Source: Chiloscyllium plagiosum (taxonomy: Eukaryota). Taken from it: a DNA stretch of 20,000 nucleotides. The notes under the pieces were generated by a model. That model was not told the DNA's origin. It searched no databases and was given only the letters and a program-made list of their open reading frames with translations. Shown piece after piece: positions 2,018 to 20,000 of this stretch. Position 1 is the stretch's first letter, and each line of letters begins with the position of its first letter. The position numbers and the translations under genes were made by a program. The stretch spans positions 8,623,645-8,643,644 of the forward strand of contig NC_057749.1 in the NCBI RefSeq assembly GCF_004010195.1, read 5' to 3'.

Positions 2018-2397
2018 TATAAAATCCCTACAGTGTGGAAAGAGGCCCAACAAGTCCACACCGACCCTCCGAAGAGTAACCCGCCCAGATCCATTTCCTC
2101 TATATTTACCAGGAGAAAGTGAGGACTGCAGATGCTGGAGATCAGAGCTGAAAATGTGTTGCTGGAAAAGCGCAGCAGGTCAGGCAGCATCTAAGGAGCA
2201 GGAGAATCGACGTTTCGGGCATGAGCCCTTCTTTAGGAATGGCTCTTCTTTAGGAATGGCTCATGCCCGAAACGTCGATTCTCCTGCTCCTTGGATACTG
2301 CCTGACCTGCTGCGCTTTTCCAGCAACACATTTTCACCTCTATATTTACCTCTGACTAATGCACCTAACCCACACAACACTGAATACTGTGGGCAAC
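2018..2397 (-). mobile_element. HE1-type SINE 3' half, interrupted by a Penelope-like mini-element
   Basis: AATCCCTACAGTGTGGAA...CCCAACAAGTCCACACCGACCCTCCGAAGAG resumes after 2336 with CTGACTAATGCACCTAAC. Confidence 0.85.
2111..2336. mobile_element. Penelope-like terminal-repeat (pLTR) fold-back mini-element with 14-bp TSD
   Basis: 79-bp inverted arms at 2149-2227 and 2258-2336 (2 mismatches). TSD CCTCTATATTTACC at 2097-2110 and 2337-2350. Same sequence family as the termini of the GIY-YIG element at 3173-4164. Confidence 0.85.
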
Positions 2398-2716
2398 TTA
2401 GATTAGAGATTAGATTAGATTACTTACAGTGTGGAAACAGGTCCTTCTGCCCAACAAGTCCACACCGACCCTCTGAAGAGCAACCCACCCAGACCCATTC
2501 CGCTACATTTACCCCTTCACATAAACAACGGGCAATTTAGCATGGCCAAATCACCTAACCTGCACATTTAGGAAACCAGAGCACCCTGAGGAAACCCACG
2601 CAGACACGGGAAGAATGTGCAAACTCCACACAGACAGTTGCCTGAGGCAGGAATTGAACCCGGGTCTCTGGCGTTGTGAGGCAGCAGTGCTGACCACTGT
2701 GCCGCCGTGCCACCCC
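2398..2716 (-). mobile_element. HE1-type SINE, near full length, with a tail reading (TTAGA)n on the plus strand
   Basis: Reverse strand reads GGCACGGCGGCACAGTGGTCAGCACTGCTGCCTCAC...GGTTCAATTCC. The tail is at 2398-2421. Confidence 0.92.
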
Positions 2717-2894
2717 AATTACCCAGCTCTGGAATTGTTGGGACTTGAACCGTGCCTGCTAGTTCAGAGGCAGGGATGTTATGACTGCACCACACGAGTC
2801 TTTATCCCTCCTCTGGGCAGACTGACTCAGCATCAGCAGCAACTGAAGTGGCATCCGTGATCTCGAGTCTTATAACTGTATATTCAGAACTGTT

Positions 2895-3172
2895 ATAGAA
2901 TCATAGTCATGCAGCACAGAAACAGACCCTTCAGTACAACCAGTCCAAGCCGAACATTATCCCAAACTAAACTAGTCCCATTTGCCTGCTCCTGGCCCAT
3001 TTCCCTCCAAACATATCCTATTCAGTATCTATCCAAATATCTTTTAAACGTTGTAATTGTACCCATATCTACCACTTCATTCCAAACGTGAACCACTCTC
3101 TGTGTAAAAAATGTGCCCCTCATGACTTTTTTAAATCTGTAATCTGTCTCCTCTCACTTTAAAATGTACCCC
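2895..3172 (-). mobile_element. CR1/HER1-type LINE 3' end; continues at 4165-4180
   Basis: ATAGAATCATAGTCAT tail, CAGCACAGAAACAGACCCTTC and CTTTTAAACGTTGTAATTGTACC. Homologous to the reverse complement of 10640-10885. Confidence 0.85.
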
Positions 3173-4164
3173 TCAAAGAAGGTGAGGACAGCAGATGGTA
3201 GAGATCAGTTGAGAGTGTGGTGCTGGAAAAGCACAGCAGGTCAGGCAGCATGTGTGGTGCTGGAAAAGCACAGCAGGTCAGGCAGCATCTGAGGAGCAGG
3301 AGAATCCATGTTTTGGACGTAAGCCCTTCATCAGGAATTGCGATAGTAGATGAAGGTGAGGGAGAAGGTGATAGGTCGGGGGGACATGAGCGGATCGATG
3401 GGAAAGGTGATGGACAGGTCAGGAGGGCAGTGCTGAGTTGGAGGTTGGGGACTGGGATAATGTGTGGGGAGGAAAATGAGGAAACTGATGAAATCCACTT
3501 AATCCCATGTGGATGCAGGGTCCCAAAGCGGAATATGAGGCGTTCTTTCTCCGGGGATCAGATGGTAAGGGTTTGGCGATGGAGGAGGCCCAGGACCTGC
3601 ATGTCCTTGCTGGAGCGGGAGGGGGACTTGAAGTGTTCAGCCACGGGGCGGTGGGGGTTGGTGGGTGTGGATGTCCCAGTGATGTTCTCTGAAATGATCC
3701 GCAAGAAGGCGTCCTGTCTCCCTGATGCAGAGGAGACCACATCGGGTGCAACAGATGCTGTAGATGACATTGGTAAAGGTACGAGTAAATTTCTGTTGGA
3801 TGTGGAAGGATCCTTTGGGGCCTTGGACGGAGGTGAGGGGAGTGGTGTTGGTGGTGGGGTCTGTTTGGAGGTGGCGGAAGTGGCAAAGGATGATGCGATG
3901 TATGCGGAGGTTGGTGGGGTGGAAGGTGAGGACTGGGGGGGTTCTGTCCTTCTTGGACTCCAACTCAGCACTGTCCTCCTGACCTGTCCATCACCTTTCC
4001 CATCTATCTGCTCCACCCCACCCCGATCTATCACCTTCTCCCTCACCTTCATCTACCTATCGCTTTCTCAGCTACCTTACCCCCAACCCCAAAACCCTCC
4101 TTCAGCCACCTGGCCCACAAGCCTCATTCCTGATGAAGGGCTTATACCCAAAATGTTGATTCAG
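3173..4164 (-). mobile_element. Penelope-like retroelement, 5'-truncated, with inverted partial pLTR
   Basis: pLTR at 3175-3445, GIY-YIG relic at 3490-3963, and an inverted copy (3958-4063 mirrors 3340-3443). Probable TSD ATGTACCCC at 3164-3172 and 4165-4173 inside a CR1 fragment. Confidence 0.88.
3490..3963 (-). pseudogene. Penelope-type GIY-YIG endonuclease domain relic (C-terminus of the PLE ORF)
   Basis: KDRTPPVLTFHP...NVIYSICCTRCGLLCIRETGRLLADHFREH, then after a frameshift PVAEHFKSPSRS..MQVLGLL, a stop codon, and EKERLIFRFGTLHPHGI. This fits the VIY-x-CxxC-YIGET...F-EH...L-P-G motif series, but it is disrupted. Confidence 0.9.
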
Positions 4165-4189
4165 ATGTACCCCCTAGTCTACCTCAAAG

Positions 4190-4290
4190 TCCACTTTACC
4201 TGATGAAGGAGAAACATTGCAAAAGCTTGAGATTTCAAATGAACTGGTTAGACTATAATCTGGTGTTGTGACTTTTTCCACCCATTCCAA
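4190..4290 (+). mobile_element. Second PLE-type terminal-repeat family fragment with decayed hammerhead
   Basis: CTGATGAAGGAG...AAAAGCTT (4200-4228) followed by GATTTCAAATGAACTGGTTAGACTATAATCTGGTG. Family assignment is from recall. Confidence 0.55.
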
Positions 4291-4714
4291 TACCCAGTCC
4301 CAGAGCTAGTGATAGGGATTACGTTGGGACCCAGTAGTTGGTACCCAGGGCTCAAAGGGGCCTGCAGTGCTTGGTCTGGAGTGGGGTCAGGAGCAGGAAT
4401 GAGGAACTTGATTTCTGACCCCAGCTCTGCTCCTTCCAATCCCTTCATATTCTTCCCAAAATGTGGCACCCACAACTACATGCATTACTTCAGCTGAGGT
4501 CTTTGTGTAAGTTTAGCATCACATTTTGTACTCTATGATCCTACTAATAAAGCTCAGGATACTGAATGCTTCATTAATTGATCCCCTTAATTATCCCAAC
4601 CACCTTCAATAACCATTGCATATGTGCACTCAGGTCGCTGCACTCCTGCACCCCCTGAAGACTTATACCCATTATTTCATATTGTCTGTCCTTATATTTC
4701 CAAGCTCAATAACT

Positions 4715-4913
4715 TGTGGAGCCGGAATAAGCATAGCAGGTCAGATGGCAACCAAGGAGCAGGAGAGTCAACGTTTCAGGCACAAGCCTTTCATCAGGAG
4801 TCCCTATGAAGAGTCCTGCCTGAAACATTAATTCTCCTGCTCCTCAGATGCTTTTTCCAACACCACACTTTATCAACTCTGACTCTCCAGCATCTGCAGT
4901 CTTCACTATCTAC
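4715..4913. mobile_element. Penelope-like fold-back mini-element (older, diverged arms)
   Basis: AGGAGCAGGAGAGTCAACGTTTCAGGC mirrors GCCTGAAACATTAATTCTCCTGCTCCT. It ends in the family terminus CCAGCATCTGCAGTCTTCACT. Confidence 0.8.
4764..4800 (-). ncRNA. Minimal type I hammerhead ribozyme motif (core intact)
   Basis: Reverse strand: actc-CTGATGA-A-AGGC-TTGT-GCCT-GAAA-CGTT-gact. Confidence 0.6.
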
Positions 4914-5127
4914 TTACATTTCCAAACAAAGTGCAGAACTTTTGGAGTTCTGCACCACTCATGCTTCGAAGTTTAGTATCAGCCACAAACTTTCAACTTG
5001 TCCTCTGCACGCTCACTTCTGTGTCATTAAGAAAAAAAGAAGTGTCCCACTACCAACCCCTGGGGAACTCCACTGCAACCTTCCTCCAGCCCAAACAACA
5101 TTCATTAGCCACTGTTCCCAATTTCCC

Positions 5128-5385
5128 ATAGAAGTTGTAGATAGAGTCACCGAGTTGTAAGCACAGAAACAGACCCTTCAGTCCAACTCATCCACGCTGA
5201 CCAGCCATTCCAATCTGACCAACTCCCATCTGCCAGCATTTGGCCCATATCCCTCTAAACCCTCCCTATTCATGTACCCATCCAGATGCCTTTTAAATGT
5301 TGTAATTGTACCAGCTTCCACCACTTCCTCTTGCAGCTCGTTCCATTCATGCACCACGCTCTGTGTGAAAAGGTCACCCCTCCGA
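5128..5385 (-). mobile_element. CR1/HER1-type LINE 3' end
   Basis: GCACAGAAACAGACCCTTCAGTCC...ATCCAGATGCCTTTTAAATGTTGTAATTGTACCAGC is the reverse-complement homolog of 18590-18806. Confidence 0.88.
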
Positions 5386-6029
5386 TCTTGTAATTTCCCA
5401 TCTGGAGTGCCAGAGAGAGTGAAAACCTGGTGTTTGAGCAGATCTGTGCATTAACAACCCAATAGCCTTCACAAGTGTCTTGCCCTGTTCATGCATGCTT
5501 TTCCTCTGAAGGTGAAATCGTCTTTGTCTTATTTTTACTGAATCCCTTGCCAAGCTGTGCATTAATGATCCTTGGAAGCTTCCTGTCCCCTTTATGCTGT
5601 GTTTAAGATCCCTTGTGCCCTTCACAGGCCAATGAAGTAAATTGCGATCAAACATTTCCCTTCGTGCGACATGAAACATGCCAGCTCCTTGCTGACGGGC
5701 AGCTGTTTGCTCGGAGGCATTTTACAAGAATTTTAGCTGAAGAGTACACTTTGCAATGTAACACAAAGGCACAGATGTCATTGAGGCTAGTTTTAGGTCA
5801 GCACTTTATAAAGCTGCTAACCTCATCTGAAATCGCTGTGCTAATGGAGTGACTTGTCCTTGTCCATAATTAGGTCTGCTGAGTGCTGACTTTGTTTTGT
5901 GAGGCTAATTGAGTCTCATGCACGTATATGTATATACAAAGGGATACAGTATACAGAACAGAATGCAGGAGTGTTCTGACCGCAGTGCAGTTCTGCAATT
6001 GAAGAGACCTCATTAACTCCTGGCATCCA

Positions 6030-6110
6030 TGCTTGACAAACCTACTGGAGTTCTTTGAGGATGTAACTAGTAGAGTTGATGATGGCGAGCCAGTGGATGT
6101 GGTTTATTTA
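6030..6110 (+). pseudogene. CR1 reverse-transcriptase fragment
   Basis: Translates as CLTNLLEFFEDVTSRVDDGEPVDVVYL, the CR1 RT segment that precedes DFxKAFD. Confidence 0.88.
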
Positions 6111-6291
6111 ATTTTTTAAAAAGTTTAATTTATCCACTCATGGGATGTGACTAAGCTGACATTTATTGCCCATCCCTCATTGCCCAGAGGGAAGTTAAGA
6201 GTTAACCACATTGCTAAGGGTCTGGAGTCACATATGGGCCAGATCAGGTAAGGATGACAGTTTCCTTCCCCTAAAGGACTTTAGTGAACCA

Positions 6292-6504
6292 AAAGAGAAA
6301 ATGCTGGAAAATCTCAGCAGGTCTGGCAGCATCTGTAAGGAGAGAAAAGAGCTGACAAAGCTTTGACAAAGGGTCAGTTAGACTCGAAACGTCAGCTCTT
6401 TTCTCTCCTTACAGATGCTGCCAGACCTGCTGAGATTTTACAGCATTTTCTCTTTTGGCTTCAGATTCCAGCATCCGCAGTAATTTGCTTTTATCCAGTT
6501 TTAT
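6292..6504. mobile_element. Penelope-like fold-back mini-element (third family) with 14-bp TSD
   Basis: 68-bp inverted arms at 6289-6356 and 6391-6458 (1 mismatch). TSD ACTTTAGTGAACCA at 6278-6291 and 6505-6518. Confidence 0.85.
6359..6397 (+). ncRNA. Minimal type I hammerhead ribozyme motif with U3:A8 variant core
   Basis: AGCT-TTGACAA-A-GGGTC-AGTTA-GACTC-GAAA-CGTC-AGCT: 4-bp stem I, 5-bp stem II and palindromic ACGT stem III. Predicted cleavage after GUC (6393). Confidence 0.7.
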
Positions 6505-7405
6505 ACTTTAGTGAACCAGATGGTTTTTCTCCAGCGATTGACAGTGGATTCATGGTCATCATTAGACGCTAAATTCCAGATTTTTATTGAACTCAAATTC
6601 CACCATCTATCACGATGGGACTCAAACTTGGGTCCCCAGGACATTACCTGGGTCCCTAGATTAACAGTCTAGAGATAACACCACTGGACCATCTCTTCCC
6701 AGAGTTTCTGAATTTGGACTTTCAGAAGTCTTTCATCACACCCACCTAAGAGATCAGTGTACACAAAGCAATGTGGCTTCTTGCACTTTCCTATCACAAG
6801 AAGCAGCAGATATTCAATGCCATCCACATTGCTGCAGACCACAGCAGCAACACCCCGACCCCCGGCTTCATTTTCCACCATTGCACGTCCCAGCTTTAAA
6901 CACTAAAGAATGACTTGGTAAATGACGGCAGTTTCATCTGCGTTACAGATGTCCCCTGATGTGTTCTTGCTCAGGAGGTGAGAGAGACCAGCTTACAGCT
7001 GACACTGCAGACTCACCCATGACTCGGCACTCTCACTCTACAATCAGTTCCGATTGGTTGGCACAGTCATATGGCCAGCACACCCAAGTTCCGCTACTCA
7101 GGAAATAGCAATCAAGAACTTCATTTATAATGGGTGCCCTTCAAATTGGATGTCTCATCCTGTGGATGGGAATAGCTAACTATTTCAGCACATCCAGTTT
7201 CTGAATTTGACTCATCAATTTTGCTGTACAGGGGGTCACCGATGCCCAATGTCTTACTAAAGAACATCCGATTTATGAACATAATCCAATACAGGCGTGC
7301 AATTTAAACAATCTAATATTCAAATGTTTCCTGTAGTAATGAGGGGTCACTATATTCTCCTGCATTGTATTCTGACTTGCATTCACATCCATTTACAAAC
7401 GAACT

Positions 7406-7995
7406 TGATTCCAGCCTCGGGTGACTGTTTGTGTGGAGTTTGCACATTCTCCCCATGTCTGCATGGGTTTCCACTTTGTGCTCTAGCTTCCTCCCACAGT
7501 CCAAAGATGTGCAGGTTAGGTGAATTGCCCATAGTGTTCAGGGATGTGTAGGATGGGTGGATTGGCCATGGGAAACACAAGGTTACAGAGATGGGGTAGG
7601 GGTCTGGGTGATATGTCTTTTTAAAATACATTTATGGGATTGGGTGTTGCTGGCTGGACCAGCATTGATAGCCCATCCCAATTTGCCTTTGAGAAGGTGG
7701 GGGTGAGTTGCCTCCTTGAATCGCGGCAGTCCACCTGCTGTTGGTTGACCCACAATGTTGGTAGGAAGGGAATTCCAGGATTTTGACCCAACGACTGTGA
7801 AGGAACGGCGATGTATTTCCAAGGCAGGATGGTGAGTGGCTTGGAGGGGAACTTGCAGGTGGTGGTGTTCCCATGTATCTGCTGTCCTTGTCCTTCTAGA
7901 TGGAAGTGGCCGTGGGTTTGGAAGGTGCTGTCTTCAGAGGGTCAGTATGGACTTGTCGGGTTGCATGGCCTGGTTCCACACTGTAAGGATCCCAT
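7406..7995 (+). mobile_element. HE1-type SINE, 5'-truncated, split by a LINE fragment
   Basis: TTGATTCCAGCCTCGGGTGACTG...GGGTCTGGGTG to ~7612, resuming at 7931 with TCTTCAGAGGGTCAGTATGGACTTG. Confidence 0.85.
7620..7930 (-). mobile_element. CR1/L2-group LINE 3' end (probable partner of the second SINE)
   Basis: Minus-strand GSKSWNSLPTNIVGQPTAGGLPRFKEATHPHLLKG fits the LINE ORF2 C-terminal WNSLP...FK motif. Homologous to 8932-9160. Confidence 0.8.
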
Positions 7996-8009
7996 CTATT
8001 TGAATGTAT

Positions 8010-8420
8010 GAATAAGAGTAGGCCATTCAGCCCCACGAACCTGTTCCATCTTTCAATGAGATTGTGATTGATCTCGATCCCAACACTTTCAATCTGATTT
8101 GCCTCCTTGTCTTTTGTTTTAATTCCAGTGGCTGCCAATCTATCAATCAACATGATTTATTGCGCTGACTGCAATGCTTCTTTTTGCAGGAGAGATTGAG
8201 TTCTAGATGTCCACCATTCTTTTCCAAGAAGGAAGCCTTCCTCATTTCTGTCCATGATGCTTTGATCTTAATGTTACATCATCTTGTCTTTGACTTCCCA
8301 ACCTACAGTAATGATCTCTACCCCCATCAATCCCTTTTAAGTTCCTCAATACAAACATAATTAAATTAACCTCTTAACCTTCCAAACTCCACAATATATG
8401 AACCTGGCCTGTGTATTCTC
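8010..8420 (-). mobile_element. Very old CR1-type LINE 3' end
   Basis: GAGTAGGCCATTCAGCCCCACGAACCTGTTCCATCTTTCAATGAGAT tail and CTCTTAACCTTCCAAACTCCA. Heavily diverged. Confidence 0.55.
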
Positions 8421-8514
8421 TCTGTATATTCCAGTTCATTGAACCCTGGTGATCAAATCACCACAGCACATTCTAAGTGCATGAACTATTGATACAGTTC
8501 CAGTTGGAGATCCA

Positions 8515-8780
8515 TCTATCAACAAACACATTGACTTGGATCCCATTTACCACTCCCTGAAAAAAAGAACAGGAAATGACATCACTACAGGAAATGATAT
8601 TACGAACCCAAAGAAACCCAAATAGAAAGCAGGAAACACCAGCAGTGCTTCGTCCGGAGGCTCACTGAAGATGTTTCCTATTATGGTGATGAAGTGTCTG
8701 GAAATGAAGCTCCCAGCTCAGCGAGCAAAAATACATCCAGAACCTCAACCTAAGCTACAAATCTTCTCAACATTTGCTAA
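8515..8780 (+). mobile_element. Fourth PLE family 3' end (ORF C-terminus plus terminal repeat with decayed hammerhead)
   Basis: TCTATCAACAAACACATTGACTTGGATCCCATTTAC translates as SINKHIDLDPIY, a PLE ORF-end motif from recall. Hammerhead remnant tca-CTGAAGA-T-GTTTCC-TATTAT-GGTGAT-GAAGTGTC-tg at 8662-8700. Confidence 0.7.
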
Positions 8781-8819
8781 CAGCAGCAGCAGATTTAGGG
8801 AACGCCAAAATCATCAACT

Positions 8820-8925
8820 GGATGCTGACAATTGGAAATGCCAACAGAAATTGCTGGAGAAACTCTGGCAGCATCTGTGGAGAGAAAGTAGAGTTAATGT
8901 TTCAAATCCAGTGACCCTTCAGCAA
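8820..8925 (-). mobile_element. Decayed PLE terminal-repeat fragment
   Basis: TGCTGGAGAAACTCTGGCAGCATCTGTGGAGAGAAAGTAGAGTTAATGTTTC is homologous to 12075-12142 and 6300-6356. Confidence 0.7.
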
Positions 8926-8931
8926 ATGTTA

Positions 8932-9160
8932 ATGCCACCACCTGCAAGTTCCCCTCCAAGCCATTCACTATCCCAACTTGGAAAGGTATCACCATTCCTT
9001 CAGTGTCACTGGGTCAAATCCCTGGAATTCTATCCATAATGGCATTCTGGGTTTACCTACAGCACAGGGACTGCTGCAGTTCAGATGATAATGCACCACC
9101 CCCTTGTTGAGGGCAATTAGGGTTGGGCAATCAAAGCTGGCCCACGTGTGTATCCAGTGA
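8932..9160 (+). mobile_element. CR1/L2-group LINE 3' end
   Basis: CACCACCTGCAAGTTCCCCTCCAAGCCA...GGGTCAAATCCCTGGAATTC...GGGCAATTAGGGTTGGGCAAT. Reverse-complement homolog of 7620-7930. Confidence 0.8.
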
Positions 9161-9244
9161 TAGGTAAAAATAAAACCCGATTTCACACAGCAACCTCTTG
9201 ACTTGACTTGAGGGAAACATAGGAATGAACAAAGAGCAAGCATC

Positions 9245-9728
9245 TGTACAGCACAGAAACAGGCCCTTCAGCCCATCAAGCCTGTGTTGACACACAATGC
9301 CTTTTGCTGTCTCTATCCTTGAGTTCCCTGCGATTCGTGTATCTGTCAAGATGCCTCTTAACTCTTGTATCTGCCTCCACCAACTCCTCTGGCAGCACAT
9401 TCCAGGCACTTAGCACCCTCTGTCTCTCACATCACCATTAAACTTACTCCTTTTTACTTTAAACCCATGTTCCTTAGCAATTGCCTTTCCATCCTGGGAA
9501 AAAGACTCCGATGATCCATTCTATCCCCGCCTCTCATAATTTTGTAAGCTTCTATCAGGCTGCCCCTCACCCTTTGACATTCAAATAAAAACAACCCGAG
9601 TTTGTCCAATCTCTCCTTGTAGCTAATATCCTCCAAACCAGGCAGCGTCCTGGCAAACCTTTTCTGTACCCACTCCAAAGTCTCCACATCATTCTGGTAG
9701 TGTGACAACCAGAACTGAACGCAATACT
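9245..9728 (-). mobile_element. CR1/HER1-type LINE ORF2 C-terminus and 3' UTR
   Basis: ORF 9454-9708 reads DVETLEWVQKRFARTLPGLEDISYKERLDKLGLF...RGSLIEAYKIMRG. Confidence 0.92.
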
Positions 9729-10084
9729 ATGTTGCAGATCTGATTAGAAATGCTCTACAAAATAAATTACTTCACCATTAACTAATGGAAATTAATTTTG
9801 AGACCTTGCTGGAGCCTAGATGGTTACCATAGAGACTGTTGATATGAGGCATCAGCTCCGGTACAGAATGTGAGACAGTCTAATGCACTGAAGTAAATGT
9901 AAATCTACTGTCATTTCTGATATCAAAATCTTTCCTGGAAATTCCATAAAGCTGATTTTTTCAAGTAAAGTCTTTTATGCAGAGATTATACATGTTAAAC
10001 TTGGCAAAAAAAAAACTCCAGCATTGAATGAAAACAGGCTTGTCATTTCTGTTGGACTCACTCCACAAGACCACAGAACTTGAG

Positions 10085-10207
10085 TCTAGATCAGAGTGGT
10101 GCTGGAAAAGCACAGTAGTTCAGGCAGCACCCGAGGAGCAGGAAAATCGACGTTTCGGGCAAAAGCCCTTCATCAGGAATACAGGCAGAGAGCCTGAAGG
10201 GTGGAGA
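10085..10207 (-). mobile_element. Penelope-like pLTR fragment (first family)
   Basis: GTGGTGCTGGAAAAGCACAGTAGTTCAGGCAGCA...CGACGTTTCGGGCAAAAGCCCTTCATCAGGAAT. A further decayed fold-back copy follows at ~10210-10358. Confidence 0.85.
10145..10180 (-). ncRNA. Minimal type I hammerhead ribozyme motif (canonical core intact)
   Basis: Reverse strand: attc-CTGATGA-A-GGGC-TTTT-GCCC-GAAA-CGTC-gatt. Predicted cleavage between plus-strand positions 10149 and 10148. Confidence 0.75.
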
Positions 10208-10360
10208 CACAAGCAAAAACAGAAATTGCTGGAGAATGCCTCTTTTATGAGCTTTGGCCTTCAGGATCACTAGACCCAAGTCATCATCTGTTTCTCTCTC
10301 CCCCAATCATGGCAAACTTGCTGAGTTTCTCCAGCAATCAGTTTTTATTTATTTCAAATC

Positions 10361-10885
10361 AGGAGTACTGTGACCAATTCTGGTCACCTAGTTATACAAA
10401 GGATGTTATTAAGTTGGAGAGGGTTCAGAAGAGATTTACTAGAATGTTGCCAGTATGGAAGGTTTGAGTTATAAAGAATAGTTGGATAGGCTGGGACATT
10501 TTTCCCCAGAGTGTAGGAGGTTGAGAGGTGACCTTATAGTAGTTTATAAAATCATGAGGCACATAGATAGGTTTAATAGTAGTTGTCTTTTCTCTAAGAT
10601 GGGGGATGTCAAGACTAGGGGGCACATTTTCAAGGTGACAGGAGAGAGATTTAAAAAAGATACAAGAGGCAAATGTTTTACACAGAGAGTGGTTCATGGG
10701 TGGAATGAATTTCCTGAGGAATTGGTGGATGTAAATACAATTACAATGTTTAAAAGACATTTGGATAAGTACATGAATAGGAAAGGTTTGGAGAGATATG
10801 AGCCAGGAGCAGGCAGGTGGAACTGGTTTATGTTCGGCATGGACTGGTTAGACCAATAGGTCTATTTCCATGCTGTACCACTCTA
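10361..10885 (+). mobile_element. CR1/HER1-type LINE ORF2 C-terminus and 3' UTR
   Basis: EYCDQFWSPSYTKDVIKLERVQKRFTRMLP, a frameshift, then RRLRGDLIVVYKIMR...KTRGHIFKV...FTQRVVHGWNEFPEE. Confidence 0.95.
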
Positions 10886-11389
10886 TCTCCAGCATCCACA
10901 CTTCTTTTTTTTAACAAAACCTCAACCTGCTTGGGCAGGTGAAGAAAAATCAGGGTAAGCTGTTGTGCCACTTAGCGATAACGTGGCCTTATAATTTTCA
11001 AAATCTCAAATGTAAATAATGTTTCCCTGGACAAAATATTGTTTGATGATGGAAGAGCATGGTAAGTGAAAATTAGTGTAAATTAAATATATTATTTGAT
11101 CAATTTAATGCCCCTTTATGATGATGACTATCACCTCTACATACTCTACTGTGGGCAATGGTCTAGCATTTATTGCAGTGTGCATTATATTAATAGCTCT
11201 CTCAATTGAATCAGTTAGCAATTTCCTTTAAATAGAAGATGTTCCAGTTAATTATATCCATACGTTCTGACTGACTGGACACTCAATGATTTAGTGATGA
11301 GAAGTTTGTGTGGGAAATGCTTTTACATGCATACTGTTAAATGAAATCCTGACTGGTTATGTGGCACCGAAATGCCTGTGGATGGTTCC

Positions 11390-11568
11390 TAAAATAACTC
11401 CATAGAGGCCGATATCCCGTAACCAAGTCACCCTTTATTTACACTAATTGCACTGGTTCAGCTCCCTCAGTGACAACTCCAAGAGTGAACAGAACCTCTG
11501 ACCCTCCTGATTACATCTGTCAGCCCAGGCTGCCTGATTGTCAGCTCCAATCAGGGAACTCATATTCT
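11390..11568 (-). mobile_element. Solo-LTR-like fragment
   Basis: AAATAACTCCATAGAGG...CAAGTCACCCTTTATTTACA...AGAGTGAACAGAACCTCTGAC...TCTGTCAGCC is homologous to 16154-17045. AATAAA is present on the minus strand. Confidence 0.6.
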
Positions 11569-11730
11569 CTCCAAACCTTTCCTATTCACGTCGCAGTCCA
11601 AATGTCTTTTTAAATGTTGTAATGGTACTCACATCCACCACTTTCTCAGGAAATTCATTCCACATGCAAACCATTCTCTGTGTAAAAAATTTTGCCCTCA
11701 TGTCTTTTTTAAATCTCTCTCCTCTCACCT
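11569..11730 (-). mobile_element. CR1/HER1-type LINE fragment
   Basis: TCCAAATGTCTTTTTAAATGTTGTAAT...TCTTTTTTAAATCTCTCTCCT matches the reverse complement of 10635-10800. Confidence 0.85.
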
Positions 11731-11935
11731 AGACTATGAGGTCCAGCTATCTGACCTCGTTACAATTACTGCATCTCCTAAACAAGTTCATGTCTTGACA
11801 CACAGTGAGGAGTGCTGGCACATTCCTTCTAAGGCATAAAAACAGACAATGAAAAGGAATTTTGCAGGAGATTCTAATTGTTATTGATTAGCTAACCAGC
11901 ACCAAACAATAATGTGTATTGCCCAATATTGCAGG

Positions 11936-12214
11936 ATGGTACAATATTTTTGATTGAACAATGATAATGCACACAAGGAGTGTGTGCCCTTCAGAAATTA
12001 AACACTCCGATCTCAGCAACATTGCAGAATAAAAGCAAAACACTGCGGATGCTGGAAATCTGAAACAAACACAGAGAATGGTGGAGAAACTCAACAGGGT
12101 CTGGCAGCATCTGTGGATTGAGAGAAACAGAGTTAACGTTTCAAATCTGGCATCAGTCTCCTTCAGAACTAACTGCTCTTCAGAGTCGAAATTCTGAAGA
12201 TGAGTACACTGGAC
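11936..12214. repeat. Left arm of a local inverted duplication (unique flank plus PLE mini-element)
   Basis: Reverse complement of 13143-13424 along its whole length. The paired ORFs 11888-12094(-) and 13236-13451(+) translate almost identically. Confidence 0.92.
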
Positions 12215-12236
12215 TCAAACACAATTCACAAGCTTT

Positions 12237-12400
12237 AGCCAACATTTATCCCTCAGTCAACACTTCAAACAGATTATCTGGTCATTTATCACATTACTGT
12301 CTAGGAGAGTTTGCAGTGCACACATTGGCTGCTACATATGTCACATGACAATGGTGCCTCTATTTCAGAAGCACGTCATCTGCAATAAAATACTTTGAAG
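12237..12400 (+). mobile_element. DeuSINE/SacSINE1-like 3' half
   Basis: GCCAACATTTATCCCTCAGTCAACAC...ACAGATTATCTGGTCATTTATCACATT...TTGGCTGC. Family assignment is from recall. Confidence 0.6.
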
Positions 12401-13067
12401 TCACAAACTCTTCCATAAGACGTAGGTTTAATTTTTTTAACCCTTATTTTAAGTACGATACATTTTTAAGTTTTCAAGCAATCGACCTCGATCAAAGAAT
12501 TAAACATTCGGGCTTTGAGCAAACTTCAGTGTCACTGTCCAAAGCTGACTAACTGCAAGGAATGCCTGAGTGGTGTCAGAAGAATTCCCCTCCATGTCCT
12601 TCCAAGCGTTTCCCTTTCTGTGGCAATTGGTTTCCCCAGTTGAATAGCAATTTCTTACCTTCTGCTTCATTGCAACAAAGGCATGGGTATATAAGATAGT
12701 GGAATTAAATTTTGCTGAGGGAGTCAGTTCCCTTGCCAAACTGCTGAATATTCCTGATTTCTTAACCTGCCACATTCCTTTACATCCCCTTCAGGAAGTC
12801 ACCTTAATAAATTGCATCAGGTTCAATAGAATGACAGTCTGACTGGATTGCAAGTCACCACTGAGTCTTTCATGTGCTGACTTACTAAATCCCAGAGGAT
12901 GACCCTCTTCTGTTTTTGACATGCCTTCTTCCAATTGCCCCCTGTAATTATTTTTAAATGCACGTTTCCATTGCTGTTGCATTCAGGTCTGTTTCTTTGA
13001 TGCTGCTCTTTCTTTGAAGTTATCAATTCAAATTGAAGTGGAGGAGTCAGTGTCAGTAATATGGGGC

Positions 13068-13328
13068 GAACACAGAGAATGCTGTGGAAACTTAGCAGGT
13101 CTGGCAGCTTCCTTGGAGAGAGAAATGGGGTTAACGTTTCACGTCCAGTGTGACTCGTCAGAATTTCAACTCTGAAGAGCAATTAGTCTGAAGAAGACTG
13201 ATGCCAGATTTGAAACGTTAACTCTGTTTCTCTCATTGCACAGATGCTGCCAGACACTGTTGAGATTCTCCAGCATTCTCTGTGTTTGTTTCAGATTTCC
13301 AGCATCTGCAGTGTTTTGCTTTTATTCT
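13068..13328. mobile_element. Penelope-like fold-back mini-element with two opposed hammerhead remnants
   Basis: 13068-13140 mirrors 13212-13290. CTGAAGA...GAAACGTT lies at 13188-13219 (+) and CTGACGA...GAAACGTT at ~13133-13161 (-). Confidence 0.8.
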
Positions 13329-13424
13329 ATAATGTTGCTTAGATGGCCGTGTTCAATTTCTGAAGGACACAAAACTCCTTGTATGCATTATCATTGTTCA
13401 ATCAGAAAATCCAAATTTTACCAT
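13143..13424. repeat. Right arm of the local inverted duplication
   Basis: Reverse complement of 11936-12214, including ~90 bp beyond the element terminus. Confidence 0.92.
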
Positions 13425-13494
13425 GTACCAATAAGGTCAATCTCGTATTAATCTTATGTCTGCAGCTGTGTATTACTGTTCCTCCCAGAGTAAG

Positions 13495-13880
13495 AAAAAG
13501 ATCTTGCATTTGTATAGTGCTTACATCCTAAAGCTATCCATGACCAGTGCAATACTCAAAAATAGTCAGTGTTCTAAAGTAGGAAAGTGTCATGGTCATT
13601 TTTATGCACAATTTTCCAGAAACAGCAATGTCATAAATGGCTACGTCATTTGTTCTTTTCTCAGGTCTAAATGTTAACTCTAGCTATCAAAAATCTGCCT
13701 GTTTTTCCCTGAAAAGAGCCAAGAATTTTCTTACATCTGTCCAAGAGGCCCGTAGTGTCTAGATTTAATGGTACTTCTGAAAGTGGGCACCTCCAGCAGG
13801 ACAGAACTCCATCAGTATGTCTCTGAAGTACTACCTGAAATATCATGTGGGATATCAGTACATGATCTTCTGATGTAGAG
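13495..13880 (-). mobile_element. Old DeuSINE/SacSINE1-like SINE
   Basis: CTTGCATTTGTATAGTGC tail, AAACAGCAATGT, and Deu-domain-like CTGAAAGTGGGCACCTCCAGCAG...ACTCCATCAGTA. Confidence 0.55.
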
Positions 13881-14076
13881 GTGTAGAGGACGTCCTGGAG
13901 AGAGACAGGGGTAAAGAGAATGAGAAAGGGAGGCTTGTTTCCAACTCATACTGACTTTTATTTAACATAAAATGAATAAAACGGAGGAAATTGTACTCCA
14001 TTGTTGCAAAAGATATTATTCTTTCTGCTGGATTTGAAATTAAAACATGTATTGACTTTTTCTAAAGCCTAACTGT

Positions 14077-14331
14077 GGGTGGCACAGGGGTTAGCACTGC
14101 TGCCTCACAGCATCAGGGATCAGGGTTCAATTCCAGCCTTGGGTGACTGTCTGTGTGGAGTTGCATGTTTTCTGTGTCTGTATGGGTTTGCTCTGGTTTC
14201 CCTCCCACAGGCAAAGATATATGTGTTAGGTTGATTGGCCATGGGAAATGCAGGGATATGGGTGGGATGTTCTTCGGGGGTAGTTGGTCTAAACTGAATG
14301 GCCTGCTTCCACAGTGTGTCATTTCTATGAT
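14077..14331 (+). mobile_element. HE1-type SINE
   Basis: GGGTGGCACAGGGGTTAGCACTGCTGCCTCACAGC...GGTTCAATTCC...GGCCTGCTTCCACAGTGT. Confidence 0.9.
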
Positions 14332-14614
14332 TTCAAATATTATTCATAAAACAGCCTGAACATGATTTTGGACGATGCTGCTATTTTTTTCCCATTGCCC
14401 TTAACAAAGAGAATCGTTACCTCAGTTCACTTGACTCAGGCTGAGGCTGTGATTGGAGTGGAACTTATTTCTTAGGACCAGGTCTTACTCAGATAGCCCA
14501 CTGAGTTTCTGCTATGAAGACTGCGAAGGAATCGCTATGTCAGATTTGCAGCATTCCACAACCTGGAACTCAGAAGGAACTGAATGTTCCTGGACAGCAG
14601 ATGAAATCACTGTC

Positions 14615-15030
14615 ACGGAATCACCGAATTGTTACTCTGCAAAAGGAGGCCACTTAACCCATTGTGTCTGTACTGGCTCTCAGGAATGAGCATTTTGCTT
14701 CGTGCAATTCTCCCGCCTCCTCCCTCTAATCCTGCACCTTTTTCTTTTCAATGGACAATCATATTCCCTTTTGGAATGCTTTCCATAAACCTGCCTCCAT
14801 CACAGTGTCAGGCAGTGCATTCCAGGAATTAACCCACTCACTGGCTGACCATGAGGCAGTGAGCGGAAGGTCATTCAGCTTTCTGAGTCTGCTCTGCCAT
14901 TCAATGAGACCCTGGCTGATCTAACAATCCACAATTCCACTTTCCAGTCTTTCCCTATAACCCTTGATTCCCTTCCTAATTAAAAATCTGTCTCAACCTC
15001 AATGACCCAACCTTAACGGCCCTCTATTGA
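14615..15030 (-). mobile_element. Two old CR1-type LINE tail fragments
   Basis: AAGGAGGCCACTTAACCCATTGTGTCTGTACTGGCTCT and TCTGCTCTGCCATTCAATGAGA...GGCTGATCT tail motifs. Diverged. Confidence 0.5.
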
Positions 15031-15120
15031 ACAACGGAGCAGGCGTGAGATGGCCTCCACCCTTTCCTATTTATTACGGTCTTATCTTAAGGAGTGAGTG
15101 GATAGGTGCAGAAGGAACCC

Positions 15121-15212
15121 AGAGAGAGTGAGAGACAGAGAGAGACAGAAAGACAGAGAGAGACAGACAGGGAGAGAGACAGACAGAGAGAGAGAGAAAG
15201 GATAGACAGACA
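15121..15212. repeat. (GA)n/(GACA)n compound microsatellite
   Basis: Direct inspection. Confidence 0.9.
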
Positions 15213-15303
15213 AAGGGATTGTTGATAGTAAGCCAGACAAGAAGAGAAACTTCCCTTGCTGAACTGTGCAACAACTCCTGAGCTAGAAACCTCCTAAATC
15301 TTG

Positions 15304-15504
15304 AGGTAAAAACAATGACTGCAGATGCTGGAAACCAGATTCTGGATTAGTGGTGCTGGAAGAGCACAGCAGTTCAGGCAGCATCCAAGTAGCTTCGAAA
15401 TCGTCGTTTCGGGCAAAAGCCCTTCATCAGGAATAAAGGCAATGAGCCTGGAGCGTGGAGAGATAAGCTAGAGGAGCTTATCTCTCCACGCTTCAGGCTC
15501 ACTG
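15304..15504 (-). mobile_element. Penelope-like pLTR with short terminal fold-back
   Basis: Terminus AGGTAAAAACAATGACTGCAGATGCTGG. Hammerhead at 15399-15434 with GTC changed to GAC. 27-bp hairpin arms at 15443-15469 and 15475-15501. Confidence 0.85.
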
Positions 15505-16284
15505 GATGTAGGATATTTGAGGAATTCTAAAACAGAGGGCTCTCTATCAGATTTGCCCATTTTAGTGGAATGGATACTGCAAGTTTACAAAGATACCTTT
15601 TCAAAATCAACATTATTGTTGGAAGTGGAAATTTAATTAGAATCTATTTTGTAATAACAGGACTCACTACACCAGTGCACTAATATGGATATCTAGCCAG
15701 AAGCAGTATTGCTAATGAGAATAACTCCTGTTTATTACAGTTCATGTTTTGCTTGTCATTTTCAGCAGTGAGCATAATGCAGCTATTACTTTAATGGCTT
15801 TTGTGTTTCTTCTGGCAATGCCCTTTTTTTTTGGTAATTAATTTTCTATTTCCTTTTGCCGTTTAAATGGTGACAGAAGGGAAAAGAGATCAGAGGGCCC
15901 AAACTTGTGAGCCATTACAAGTTGTGAAACAGGTTAACGAGATTATTTTTTAAAAAAATGCAAAACACTGAGGGATAATAGTTAAACATCCCCAGCAGAT
16001 GTCCCCTTCAGAAAGGTTCTGCCTCTCATCAACATCCCATCATTCCTGAACACAAGCTGAGAATAGCTTCCAAAGGAAGCACTTGGGAGCGAGTGGGATT
16101 AATAAAAAAGTTAATAGTTAAATGTTCTTTGTCCAGAGAAATTATTAATGGTGTGAAATAACTGCACAGAGGTTGATATCCCTTCATCAAGTCACCTTTT
16201 ATTTACATGTGCACCATACAGTGGCTGTGGCCAGCCAGCTAGGAATCAGTCCCTGAACTGAGGAGATTATGAATCCTCATTTTA

Positions 16285-19476: not shown

Positions 19477-20000
19477 CCCCCATACACACACACACTTACA
19501 TCGCACACATACCCCCAATAAACCCCATACACTCACAACACAAACACTCCACTTCCACACACACATACCCCATATACACACACACTTACATCGCACACGC
19601 ACCCCCAATAAACCCCATACACTCACAACACAAACACTCCACTTCCACACACACATACCCCATATACACACACACTTACATCGCACACGCACCCCCAATA
19701 AACCCCATACACTCACAACACAAACACTCCACTTCCACACACACATACCCCATATACACACACACTTACATCGCACACGCACCCCCAATAAACCCCATAC
19801 ACTCACAACACAAACACTCCACTTCCACACACACATACCCCATATACACACACACTTACATCGCACACGCACCCCCAATAAACCCCATACACTCACAACA
19901 CAAACACTCCACTTCCACACACACATACCCCATATACACACACACTTACATCGCACACGCACCCCCAATAAACCCCATACACTCACAACACAAACACTCT
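19477..20000. repeat. 90-bp C/A-rich minisatellite, ~5.8 near-identical units, running to the window edge
   Basis: Unit CATATACACACACACTTACATCGCACACGCACCCCCAATAAACCCCATACACTCACAACACAAACACTCCACTTCCACACACACATACCC starts at 19481, 19571, 19661, 19751, 19841 and 19931. Confidence 0.98.

Follow-up and report, generated by a model that had tools for sequence, protein, structure and literature searches.

The locus considered here raises two questions: in what kind of element a dense set of hammerhead-like motifs is carried, and whether such motifs act as ribozymes. The window, by which we mean the whole stretch of 20,000 nt that was analysed, comes from the shark Chiloscyllium plagiosum (NC_057749.1, 8,623,645-8,643,644; the assembly comprises 3.56 Gb). 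A first-pass annotation of its letters had listed 15 minimal hammerheads and assigned them to Penelope-like elements (PLEs), and all 15 stretches were found at the positions and with the sequences that it gave. On the sense strand, the 15 sites follow one plan, in which 4 nt of helix I are followed by CUGANGA, an unpaired base, the helix II hairpin, GAAA, a palindrome (stem III; ACGU and once AGCU), the cleavage nucleotide and the 3' strand of helix I. The motifs are very probably minimal hammerhead ribozyme (min-HHR) sequences of type I with a helix II of 4-6 bp, residing in 5'-truncated PLE copies that would have been inserted by target-primed reverse transcription and have since mostly decayed.

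Detection, pairing and families of the motifs

The motifs were detected using a strict descriptor and a covariance model. The descriptor required the CTGANGA and GAAA boxes, a minimum of 3 bp in helix II, a palindrome of 4 nt as stem III and any nucleotide but G at H. Four matches were obtained in the window (10149-10176(-), 4770-4797(-), 13133-13161(-) and 13188-13219(+)), compared with a mean of 0.037 and a maximum of 1 in the chance control, which comprised 300 dinucleotide-preserving shuffles of the window. The covariance model (R1) was built from 21 copies, 20 from elsewhere in the genome and one from the window (4764-4803), and was run with filters off. R1 gave 13 window matches at E<=0.29, 11 of them at E<=0.018; the remaining matches (E>=1) resemble noise. 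Ten of the 15 listed sites were recovered at E<=0.018 (those beginning at 2203, 3301, 4124, 4764, which is the training row, 6357, 8890, 10143, 12129, 13182 and 15397), as was a partial copy absent from the first-pass list (2243-2282(+), E of 2e-4), and two were marginal (12188, E 0.16; 13127, E 0.29). The other three could not be separated from noise by R1 (4194-4235, E 6.1; 4797-4835, E 5.5; 8662-8700, with only a partial overlapping match at E 6.3). These sites (4196, 4802 and 8662) are recognisable only by homology, as decayed copies of hammerhead-bearing repeats. The motifs in the window are real and above chance, and the observation is confirmed.

Pairing in the helices was scored in two ways, both of which draw on 21-24 sequences that are related to each other and on fetch patterns in which part of helix II was preset for families A, B and D, a source of partial bias. 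Alignment A1 (21 copies, 168 cells) was scored against an author-specified structure. In this alignment 83.9% of the cells pair, compared with 72.1 +/- 1.7% in shuffles, none of 500 of which scored as high, and shifting the 3' partner by 1-3 columns lowers pairing to 10-50%. Both-sided changes occur at all eight pairs, in 28 cells. Helix II pairs in 92.9% of its cells and helix I in 75%, with both-sided changes at four of four pairs in each helix. These values include two family E rows that are one column out of register, which works against the structure. The second count used no structure-fitted alignment, with the core boxes as the only anchors, and covered 24 distinct motif types (45 instances) in 248,459 nt of window and genome loci. 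Here, of 96 cells in each helix, 88 are paired in helix II and 72 in helix I. Slid registers give 22-51 of 96 paired cells overall (23-32 for helix I), and none of 2000 permutations reached the observed value for either helix.

The covariation across families that had been claimed from the window is therefore upheld, as all eight pairs change on both sides and the slid and shuffled controls are lower. The same is true of the extra base after A9: helix II pairs in 88 of 96 cells when one base is skipped, compared with 51 of 96 when none and 53 of 96 when two are skipped. At the 10.1-11.1 pair, the 24 motif types have GC (12), GU (6), AU (4) or another combination (2). Helix I is short and open, at 4 bp; the stem I pairing ATTC/GATT given earlier for what is the main family is correct at three of four positions, the third being a U.U.

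Five families (A, B, D-like, E and F) were counted in the window, where at least four had been proposed. Seven listed sites and the unlisted partial copy belong to family A (helix II GGGC/GCCC or AGGC/GCCU) and five sites to the D-like family (genome form of helix II GGGUC/GACCU). Families B (helix II GGGUC/GACUC), E (stem III AGCU, genome form of helix II GGAGC/GCUCC) and F (helix II of the GUUACC/GGUAAU type) are represented by one site each. A 'family C', corresponding to the third stem set of the first-pass annotation, was dropped, its helix II sequence occurring nowhere else in the genome. The 15 sites are also not all independent. Positions 11947-12200 and 13155-13408 form a local inverted duplication that includes non-element flanking DNA, and because of this the pairs 12130(-)/13184(+) and 12191(+)/13130(-), which had been counted separately, represent two events and not four.

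A canonical intact core is present at four of the 15 sites (4764(-), 10145(-), 13130(-) and 13184(+)), and a usable core at five if the U3-A8 site 6359(+) is included. The copies at 13127-13167(-) and 13182-13225(+) both meet the strict descriptor, yet their helices are weak. Single core substitutions were found at three sites (G5>A at 2205, A9>G at 12130 and U16.1>A at 15399) and multiple decay at seven, among which a change of the stem III CpG to TG or CA is common. The earlier statement that most of the motifs are decayed holds in that ten of the 15 sites carry one or more core substitutions, but it does not apply to 6359(+). In the forms that the families take across the genome, the core is intact. 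This site is not decayed, because its TTGACAA box is the form of its family, present in ten of 12 family B loci; 12 genome loci each were sampled for families B and D (L011-L022 and L025-L036, respectively). U3 together with A8 preserves the C3-G8 core pair of family B by a double change, and Schistosoma PLEs have been reported to carry the same core variant (PMC4209133). Genome-wide, the U3-A8 pattern in its general form shows no enrichment (3,369 matches versus 3,475 in the control); only the specific family B pattern is enriched, with 1,501 genome matches versus none for its reversed control.

Penelope-like carriers, copy number and arrangement

The carriers were identified as PLEs because long copies encode a reverse transcriptase (RT) and, putatively, a GIY-YIG-like nuclease; RT with GIY-YIG is the combination that defines these elements (PMC4209133, PMC8557442). 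In families A, B and D the motifs lie ~100-125 nt from the 3' end of 5'-truncated elements, and the tail behind each motif contains a block that is shared across the families (GATGCTGCC.GACCTGCTG ... CCAGCA). Copies share the 3' end and vary at the 5' end. A DNA search using the region of the window that contains an open reading frame (ORF) remnant gave 10,896 first-look candidates, and a search using an upstream protein piece gave 45,533 and led to longer ORFs. The five loci chosen for full-element recovery share only ~1 kb. A long frame at locus L065 spans 839 codons (stop to stop) and contains an RVT_1 match of 31.5 bits (E 1.8e-7); that at locus L066 spans 807 codons (stop to stop) and contains a match of 32.4 bits (E 9.7e-8), the curated cut-off being 29.6. 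Downstream of the RVT_1 domain, a frame of L065 contains C-x4-C-x2-C and then a GIY-YIG match (PF01541; 21.3 bits, cut-off 22.6, E 3.3e-4); the PF01541 match of L052, at 19.9 bits, is likewise under the cut-off. The L065 hammerhead is located ~460 nt beyond the endonuclease region on the same strand, and the element ends ~120 nt later.

RT relatives at E<=1e-10 number 1700, and RVT_1 (or companion families) was found together with GIY-YIG in 15 of the 120 listed; the nearest named relatives are bamboo shark proteins with 86% and 81% identity. The endonuclease motif is conserved in 17 ORF fragments, which were picked by a motif-based search. In the window, the copy at 3301-3990(-) repeats the layout of the long elements, with an ORF remnant upstream of a hammerhead on the same strand; positions 3252-3950(-) match the L049 and L065 elements in blastn, and the hammerhead copy continues upstream into ORF pieces. 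The PLE-type identity proposed for the motifs is thus borne out by long copies in which an RVT_1 ORF and a GIY-YIG-like motif accompany a matching hammerhead and tail. All of the long copies inspected are frameshifted or partly N. No complete element was recovered, and no copy in the window belongs to one. Pfam gave nothing on the window's own ORF pieces or on three 1-kb copies, an NCBIfam search found nothing and a PDB sequence search with the long ORF gave no match. In the ORF linker region of L065 (positions 4290-4657 of that locus), a 46-nt unit is repeated ~6 times and expands a proline-rich stretch.

Genome-wide counts were made for the palindromic ACGT and AGCT types of stem III, with reversed patterns as controls. 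The pattern CTGANGA-N(9-20)-GAAACGTH occurs 168,201 times (1,422 for the reversed control) and its AGCT version 51,797 times (255 for the reversed control). The total of 219,998 versus 1,677 corresponds to ~62 per Mb, 1.2 per 20 kb or one per 16 kb. Individual family motifs reach thousands of genome copies, compared with none for their reversed controls; one 32-nt family A motif, as in the 10143-10182 copy, occurs 17,422 times. Both types of loopless palindromic stem III noted in the first-pass annotation are far above their controls, and its inference of a genome rich in ribozyme motifs is confirmed, although the window, with four matches, has roughly three times the average density of the genome.

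Five head-to-head inverted pairs with differing junction points are present in the window (2144-2239 / 2246-2341, 3302-3443 / 3958-4162, 4748-4782 / 4817-4851, 6289-6356 / 6391-6458 and 15440-15469 / 15475-15504). They match published insertion patterns, in which PLEs have inverted 5'-truncated partner copies (PMC8557442) and min-HHRs form pairs on opposite strands 100-700 bp apart (PMC4209133). Inverted pairs alone supply no ribozyme dimer, because only one arm is sense in each transcript. The short units of families B and D have, in addition, a discrete 5' end that coincides exactly with the opening base of stem I (AGCT or AGTT), in nine of 12 and seven of 12 sampled loci, respectively. Upstream of these units is unrelated DNA or an inverted partner. 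This boundary is not explained by current PLE models, and a circular or tandem template that might set it is unsupported, because family B is without head-to-tail tandems.

The features of the window are given in Table 1. The arms of the inverted repeat 2144-2239 / 2246-2341 are 93% complementary, and a perfect 17-nt tandem duplication (x2.1) is located at 2228-2262, exactly at the junction of this pair. The hammerhead at 4124-4163(+) and the 3301-3990 copy are inverted partners, and the arms 4748-4782 and 4817-4851 belong to the 4764 copy and its decayed partner. The family B unit at 6357-6493 shares 97.8% identity over 135 nt with the L016 unit (blastn), and the arms 6289-6356 and 6391-6458 are 99% complementary. 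Positions 8662-8695 are identical to one genome copy at 30 of 34 positions, counted by eye. The family A1 copy at 15304-15504 has a 30-nt inverted partner at 15475-15504.

Table 1. Hammerhead motifs, partner copies and the ORF remnant in the window (bits and E values are those of R1 unless blastn is named)
Feature	Position	Strand	Details
Family A minimal hammerhead	2203..2242	-	Box CTAAAGA (G5>A), rest intact; tail to ~2111; 41.7 bits, E 7e-8; blastn to A elements 2111-2247
Partial family A copy, inverted partner of 2203-2242	2243..2282	+	Begins inside helix II, without CUGANGA box; 27.0 bits, E 2e-4
Decayed family A hammerhead	3301..3340	-	G12>A, stem III ACAT, H=G, one helix II mismatch; 31.6 bits, E 1.7e-5
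Frameshifted Penelope-like ORF remnant, endonuclease region	3419..3990	-	Upstream of 3301-3340 hammerhead, same strand; motif C..C...(Y/C)I(G/R)ET.R.L..(H/R)F.EH
Decayed family A hammerhead	4124..4163	+	G12>A, stem III ATGT; cut off right after stem I; 34.5 bits, E 3.5e-6
Strongly decayed family E copy, stem III AGCT type	4196..4270	+	7.8 bits, E 6.1; blastn 4198-4270 to L052 family E unit, E 1e-10
Intact family A' hammerhead	4764..4803	-	Helix II AGGC/GCCT, cleavage triplet GUU; strict match; 47.1 bits (training row)
Decayed inverted partner of 4764 copy, family A	4797..4914	+	Box CTATGAA, helix II deletion, stem III ACAT; E 5.5; blastn 4817-4914 to family A element
Inverted partial family B copy, tail only	6287..6356	-	Inner end 2 nt before cleavage-site position
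Full-length family B unit, ~135 nt, begins at stem I	6357..6493	+	TTGACAA (U3-A8), helix II GGGTC/GACTC, stem I AGCT/AGCT; 42.1 bits, E 5.7e-8
Decayed family F motif	8662..8700	+	Helix II GTTTCC/GGTGAT, GAAA>GAAG, stem III CG>TG
Decayed family D-like copy with tail	8819..8931	-	A9 lost, stem III ACAT; 18.6 bits, E 0.018; blastn to D and B units
Family A1 copy, fully intact hammerhead at 10143-10182	10093..10207	-	Strict match; 48.2 bits, E 2.1e-9; 93.8% identity to L006 copy
Head-to-head D-like pair	11947..12230	.	12129-12172(-) A9>G, 25.5 bits, E 4.5e-4; 12188-12228(+) decayed, 14.6 bits, E 0.16
D-like pair, other duplication arm	13125..13408	.	13127-13167(-) 13.5 bits, E 0.29; 13182-13225(+) 24.8 bits, E 6.5e-4
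Family A1 copy	15304..15504	-	Hammerhead 15397-15436, U16.1>A; 41.7 bits, E 7.1e-8; 91.9% identity to L006 over 172 nt

Other repeats were noted in and around these copies. A perfect 37-nt tandem duplication (x2.0) lies at 3215-3288, within a decayed element copy. A GA-rich microsatellite occupies 15120-15210, ~95 nt from the 3' end of the A1 copy 15304-15475; a microsatellite insertion bias has been reported for PLEs of other clades (PMC8557442). A satellite with a period of 90 nt (5.8 copies, 99% matches) is found at 19478-19999 and continues past the end of the window. Unrelated repeat families are also inverted (7717-7874 / 8926-9083 and 10625-10796 / 11566-11738). No transfer RNA genes were found by ARAGORN.

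Cleavage, structural role and other explanations

The reading given with the first-pass list (minimal PLE hammerheads with a loopless stem III, covarying helices and an extra base) is supported. Target-primed reverse transcription would account for the heavy 5' truncation of the window copies and their frequent head-to-head inverted partners, and the inserted copies have since mostly decayed in place, including loss of the stem III CpG. In the RNA of a live element, two motifs could pair through the palindromic stem III to give an extended helix III; the paired motifs would cut after GUC, GUU or CUA, and cutting would probably need the element's own protein. Reasoning by analogy with characterized PLE hammerheads, we lean slightly towards the view that the intact families cut in vivo.

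Several results weigh against type I PLE hammerheads, or against their activity. Rfam gave no hammerhead family (types I, II, III, HH9 and HH10) on the window at the gathering score or at E<=10; no such match is expected, because the Rfam models need a helix III hairpin. GIY-YIG was found in two of the 11 endonuclease translations tested, both under the curated cut-off, and a PDB search with a 12-copy endonuclease profile found no solved structure. No direct pseudo-long-terminal-repeat (pseudo-LTR) tandem was seen in L065, the sole long locus examined for repeats, and a genome-wide search found no head-to-tail family B tandems of the kind that could supply dimers in cis. In minimum free energy folds of 40-43-nt monomers and of dimers, helix II is kept, the CUGAUGA box pairs with the ACGUC segment and there is no hammerhead junction, an outcome that says little about a motif whose core is non-canonical. 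The folds of 10143-10182, 4764-4803 and 6357-6399 may represent a competing inactive conformer. The literature, too, speaks against cleavage as a necessary function. The min-HHRs of metazoans cleave only weakly in vitro without helpers, dimers included (PMC4209133). The hammerhead of the Anolis element depends on protein, can be left out without preventing insertion in vitro, and showed no RNA-seq read ends at its site (PMC11167929).

The hammerhead-shaped module could instead owe its retention mainly to a structural or recognition function in the PLE 3' region, for example for RT binding or for positioning near an internal initiation site, with self-cleavage weak, incidental or absent in vivo. 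The fixed motif-to-3'-end distance of ~100-125 nt in families A, B and D, with the shared block following, is consistent with such a role, as is the low activity in vitro (PMC4209133). In the Anolis system, where insertion in vitro does not require the hammerhead and read ends are missing at its site, unprocessed RNA is the main substrate (PMC11167929). In the genome analysed here, the junction between hammerhead and tail is uncut in every copy, so that the RNA being copied is the uncut form. Selection nevertheless keeps exactly the letters of the catalytic core, the N-U-H site and the palindromic stem III. The family B double change keeps C3-G8. A protein-binding hairpin would need none of these features, and cleavage in the presence of protein depends on C3 and G8 (PMC11167929). 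We consider it unlikely that structure or recognition is the main reason for which the module is kept. A proposal that we regard as highly improbable is that the short units are non-LTR retrozymes, with tandem hammerhead transcripts that self-cut to unit length, circularise and are recopied by PLE enzymes. It would suit the discrete stem I 5' ends of the family B and D units, and among the matches listed there are same-strand family E pairs (AGCT stem III) ~200 nt apart on contig C1, a retrozyme-like arrangement; a preprint derives animal retrozymes from PLE pseudo-LTRs and found them in its one cartilaginous fish (10.64898/2026.07.22.740005). The window, however, has no same-family same-strand tandem, head-to-tail family B units are absent genome-wide, the copies are dispersed singles or inverted pairs and genomic copies show no circular permutation with respect to the cleavage site.

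There is next to no probability left for chance matches or by-products of other hairpin repeats, such as microRNA (miRNA) precursors or inverted-repeat DNA transposons. Many copies are palindromic, and Rfam gives miRNA-like sub-threshold matches on the hairpins at 6290-6457, 2194-2291 and 15437-15507, but these matches are all below gathering scores and arise because inverted repeats form hairpins; the match at 6290-6457 has its source in the 6289-6356 / 6391-6458 repeat. The junctions of the pairs vary while their outer ends are constant, which fits 5'-truncated retro-copies and not terminal inverted repeats, and the long copies carry RT and endonuclease. The shuffles and reversed controls exclude chance, and this explanation was already refuted.

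Significance and comparison with known systems

PLE hammerheads cleave poorly in vitro, and insertion in the sole reconstituted system does not require them. With copies in the hundreds of thousands, spread over several families that covary independently and include one with U3-A8, a vertebrate genome such as this amounts to a rich natural mutagenesis data set and is a good place to seek cleavage products in vivo. For annotation, it matters that none of these motifs is caught by the standard Rfam models and that their inverted pairs can be mistaken for miRNA hairpins. More speculatively, and with low confidence, we suggest that this genome, with ~220,000 intact core patterns, may hold the largest load of self-cleaving-ribozyme motifs counted in any organism, that some of its families may have been amplified recently (17,422 copies of one 32-nt motif, RT frames of more than 800 codons) and that the boundary of the B and D units may mark a transcription start or processing site tied to the ribozyme. 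If that were true of the boundary, the units would form a class of hammerhead-headed retroposons resembling short interspersed elements (SINEs), and their life cycle could reveal the purpose of PLE hammerheads.

All of the features described here have already been described by Cervera & de la Pena, 2014 (PMC4209133). Shared with the metazoan PLE min-HHRs of that study are the type I topology without a helix III hairpin, the palindromic 15.2-16.2 pairs, the unpaired base between A9 and 10.1, a helix I of 4-5 bp, a mostly G10.1-C11.1 pair, compensatory changes, the U3-A8 variant, opposite-strand pairs and the occurrence mostly as single motifs in truncated PLEs. Helix II of the main family is 4 bp here, compared with 6-8 bp in Schistosoma and Drosophila (PMC4209133). 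The host also differs: min-HHRs were reported in fishes, coelacanth, amphibians and reptiles, whereas no cartilaginous fish appears to be named in the main text of that paper (PMC4209133). We found no paper that counts min-HHRs in cartilaginous fish (supplementary tables lay outside the search). The counts of ~4,000 in coelacanth and ~9,000 in Xenopus were called remarkable (PMC4209133); the corresponding count here is 219,998, although the descriptors differ and the numbers are not strictly comparable.

Among elements with a known organization, the Neptune and Nematis PLEs, which carry an endonuclease and a Cys-rich linker between RT and endonuclease, share with the long copies a single ORF in which RT is followed by a GIY-YIG-like domain, the C-x4-C-x2-C motif before the endonuclease, a hammerhead close to the 3' end, extensive loss of 5' sequence and inverted partner copies that are themselves 5'-truncated (PMC8557442). 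Unlike in those elements, no pseudo-LTR tandem was seen at L065, and the likeness described here is one of features. The Poseidon element PAc of Anolis carolinensis, another PLE of a vertebrate, likewise combines a hammerhead with a defined 3' tail (PMC11167929). Its hammerhead overlaps the ORF start, whereas that of L065 lies downstream of the endonuclease region, and biochemistry exists for PAc, whereas the elements described here are known from sequence alone (PMC11167929). The short non-autonomous type I units related to PLE pseudo-LTRs recall non-LTR retrozymes and the SINE-like hammerhead repeats of Schistosoma (PMC7229834; 10.64898/2026.07.22.740005). Retrozymes have canonical hammerheads, head-to-tail tandems and circular RNAs, in contrast to the dispersed or inverted units of the window (PMC7229834; 10.64898/2026.07.22.740005). 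What is new in the present case is the host lineage, the very high copy number and the family-wide U3-A8 core.

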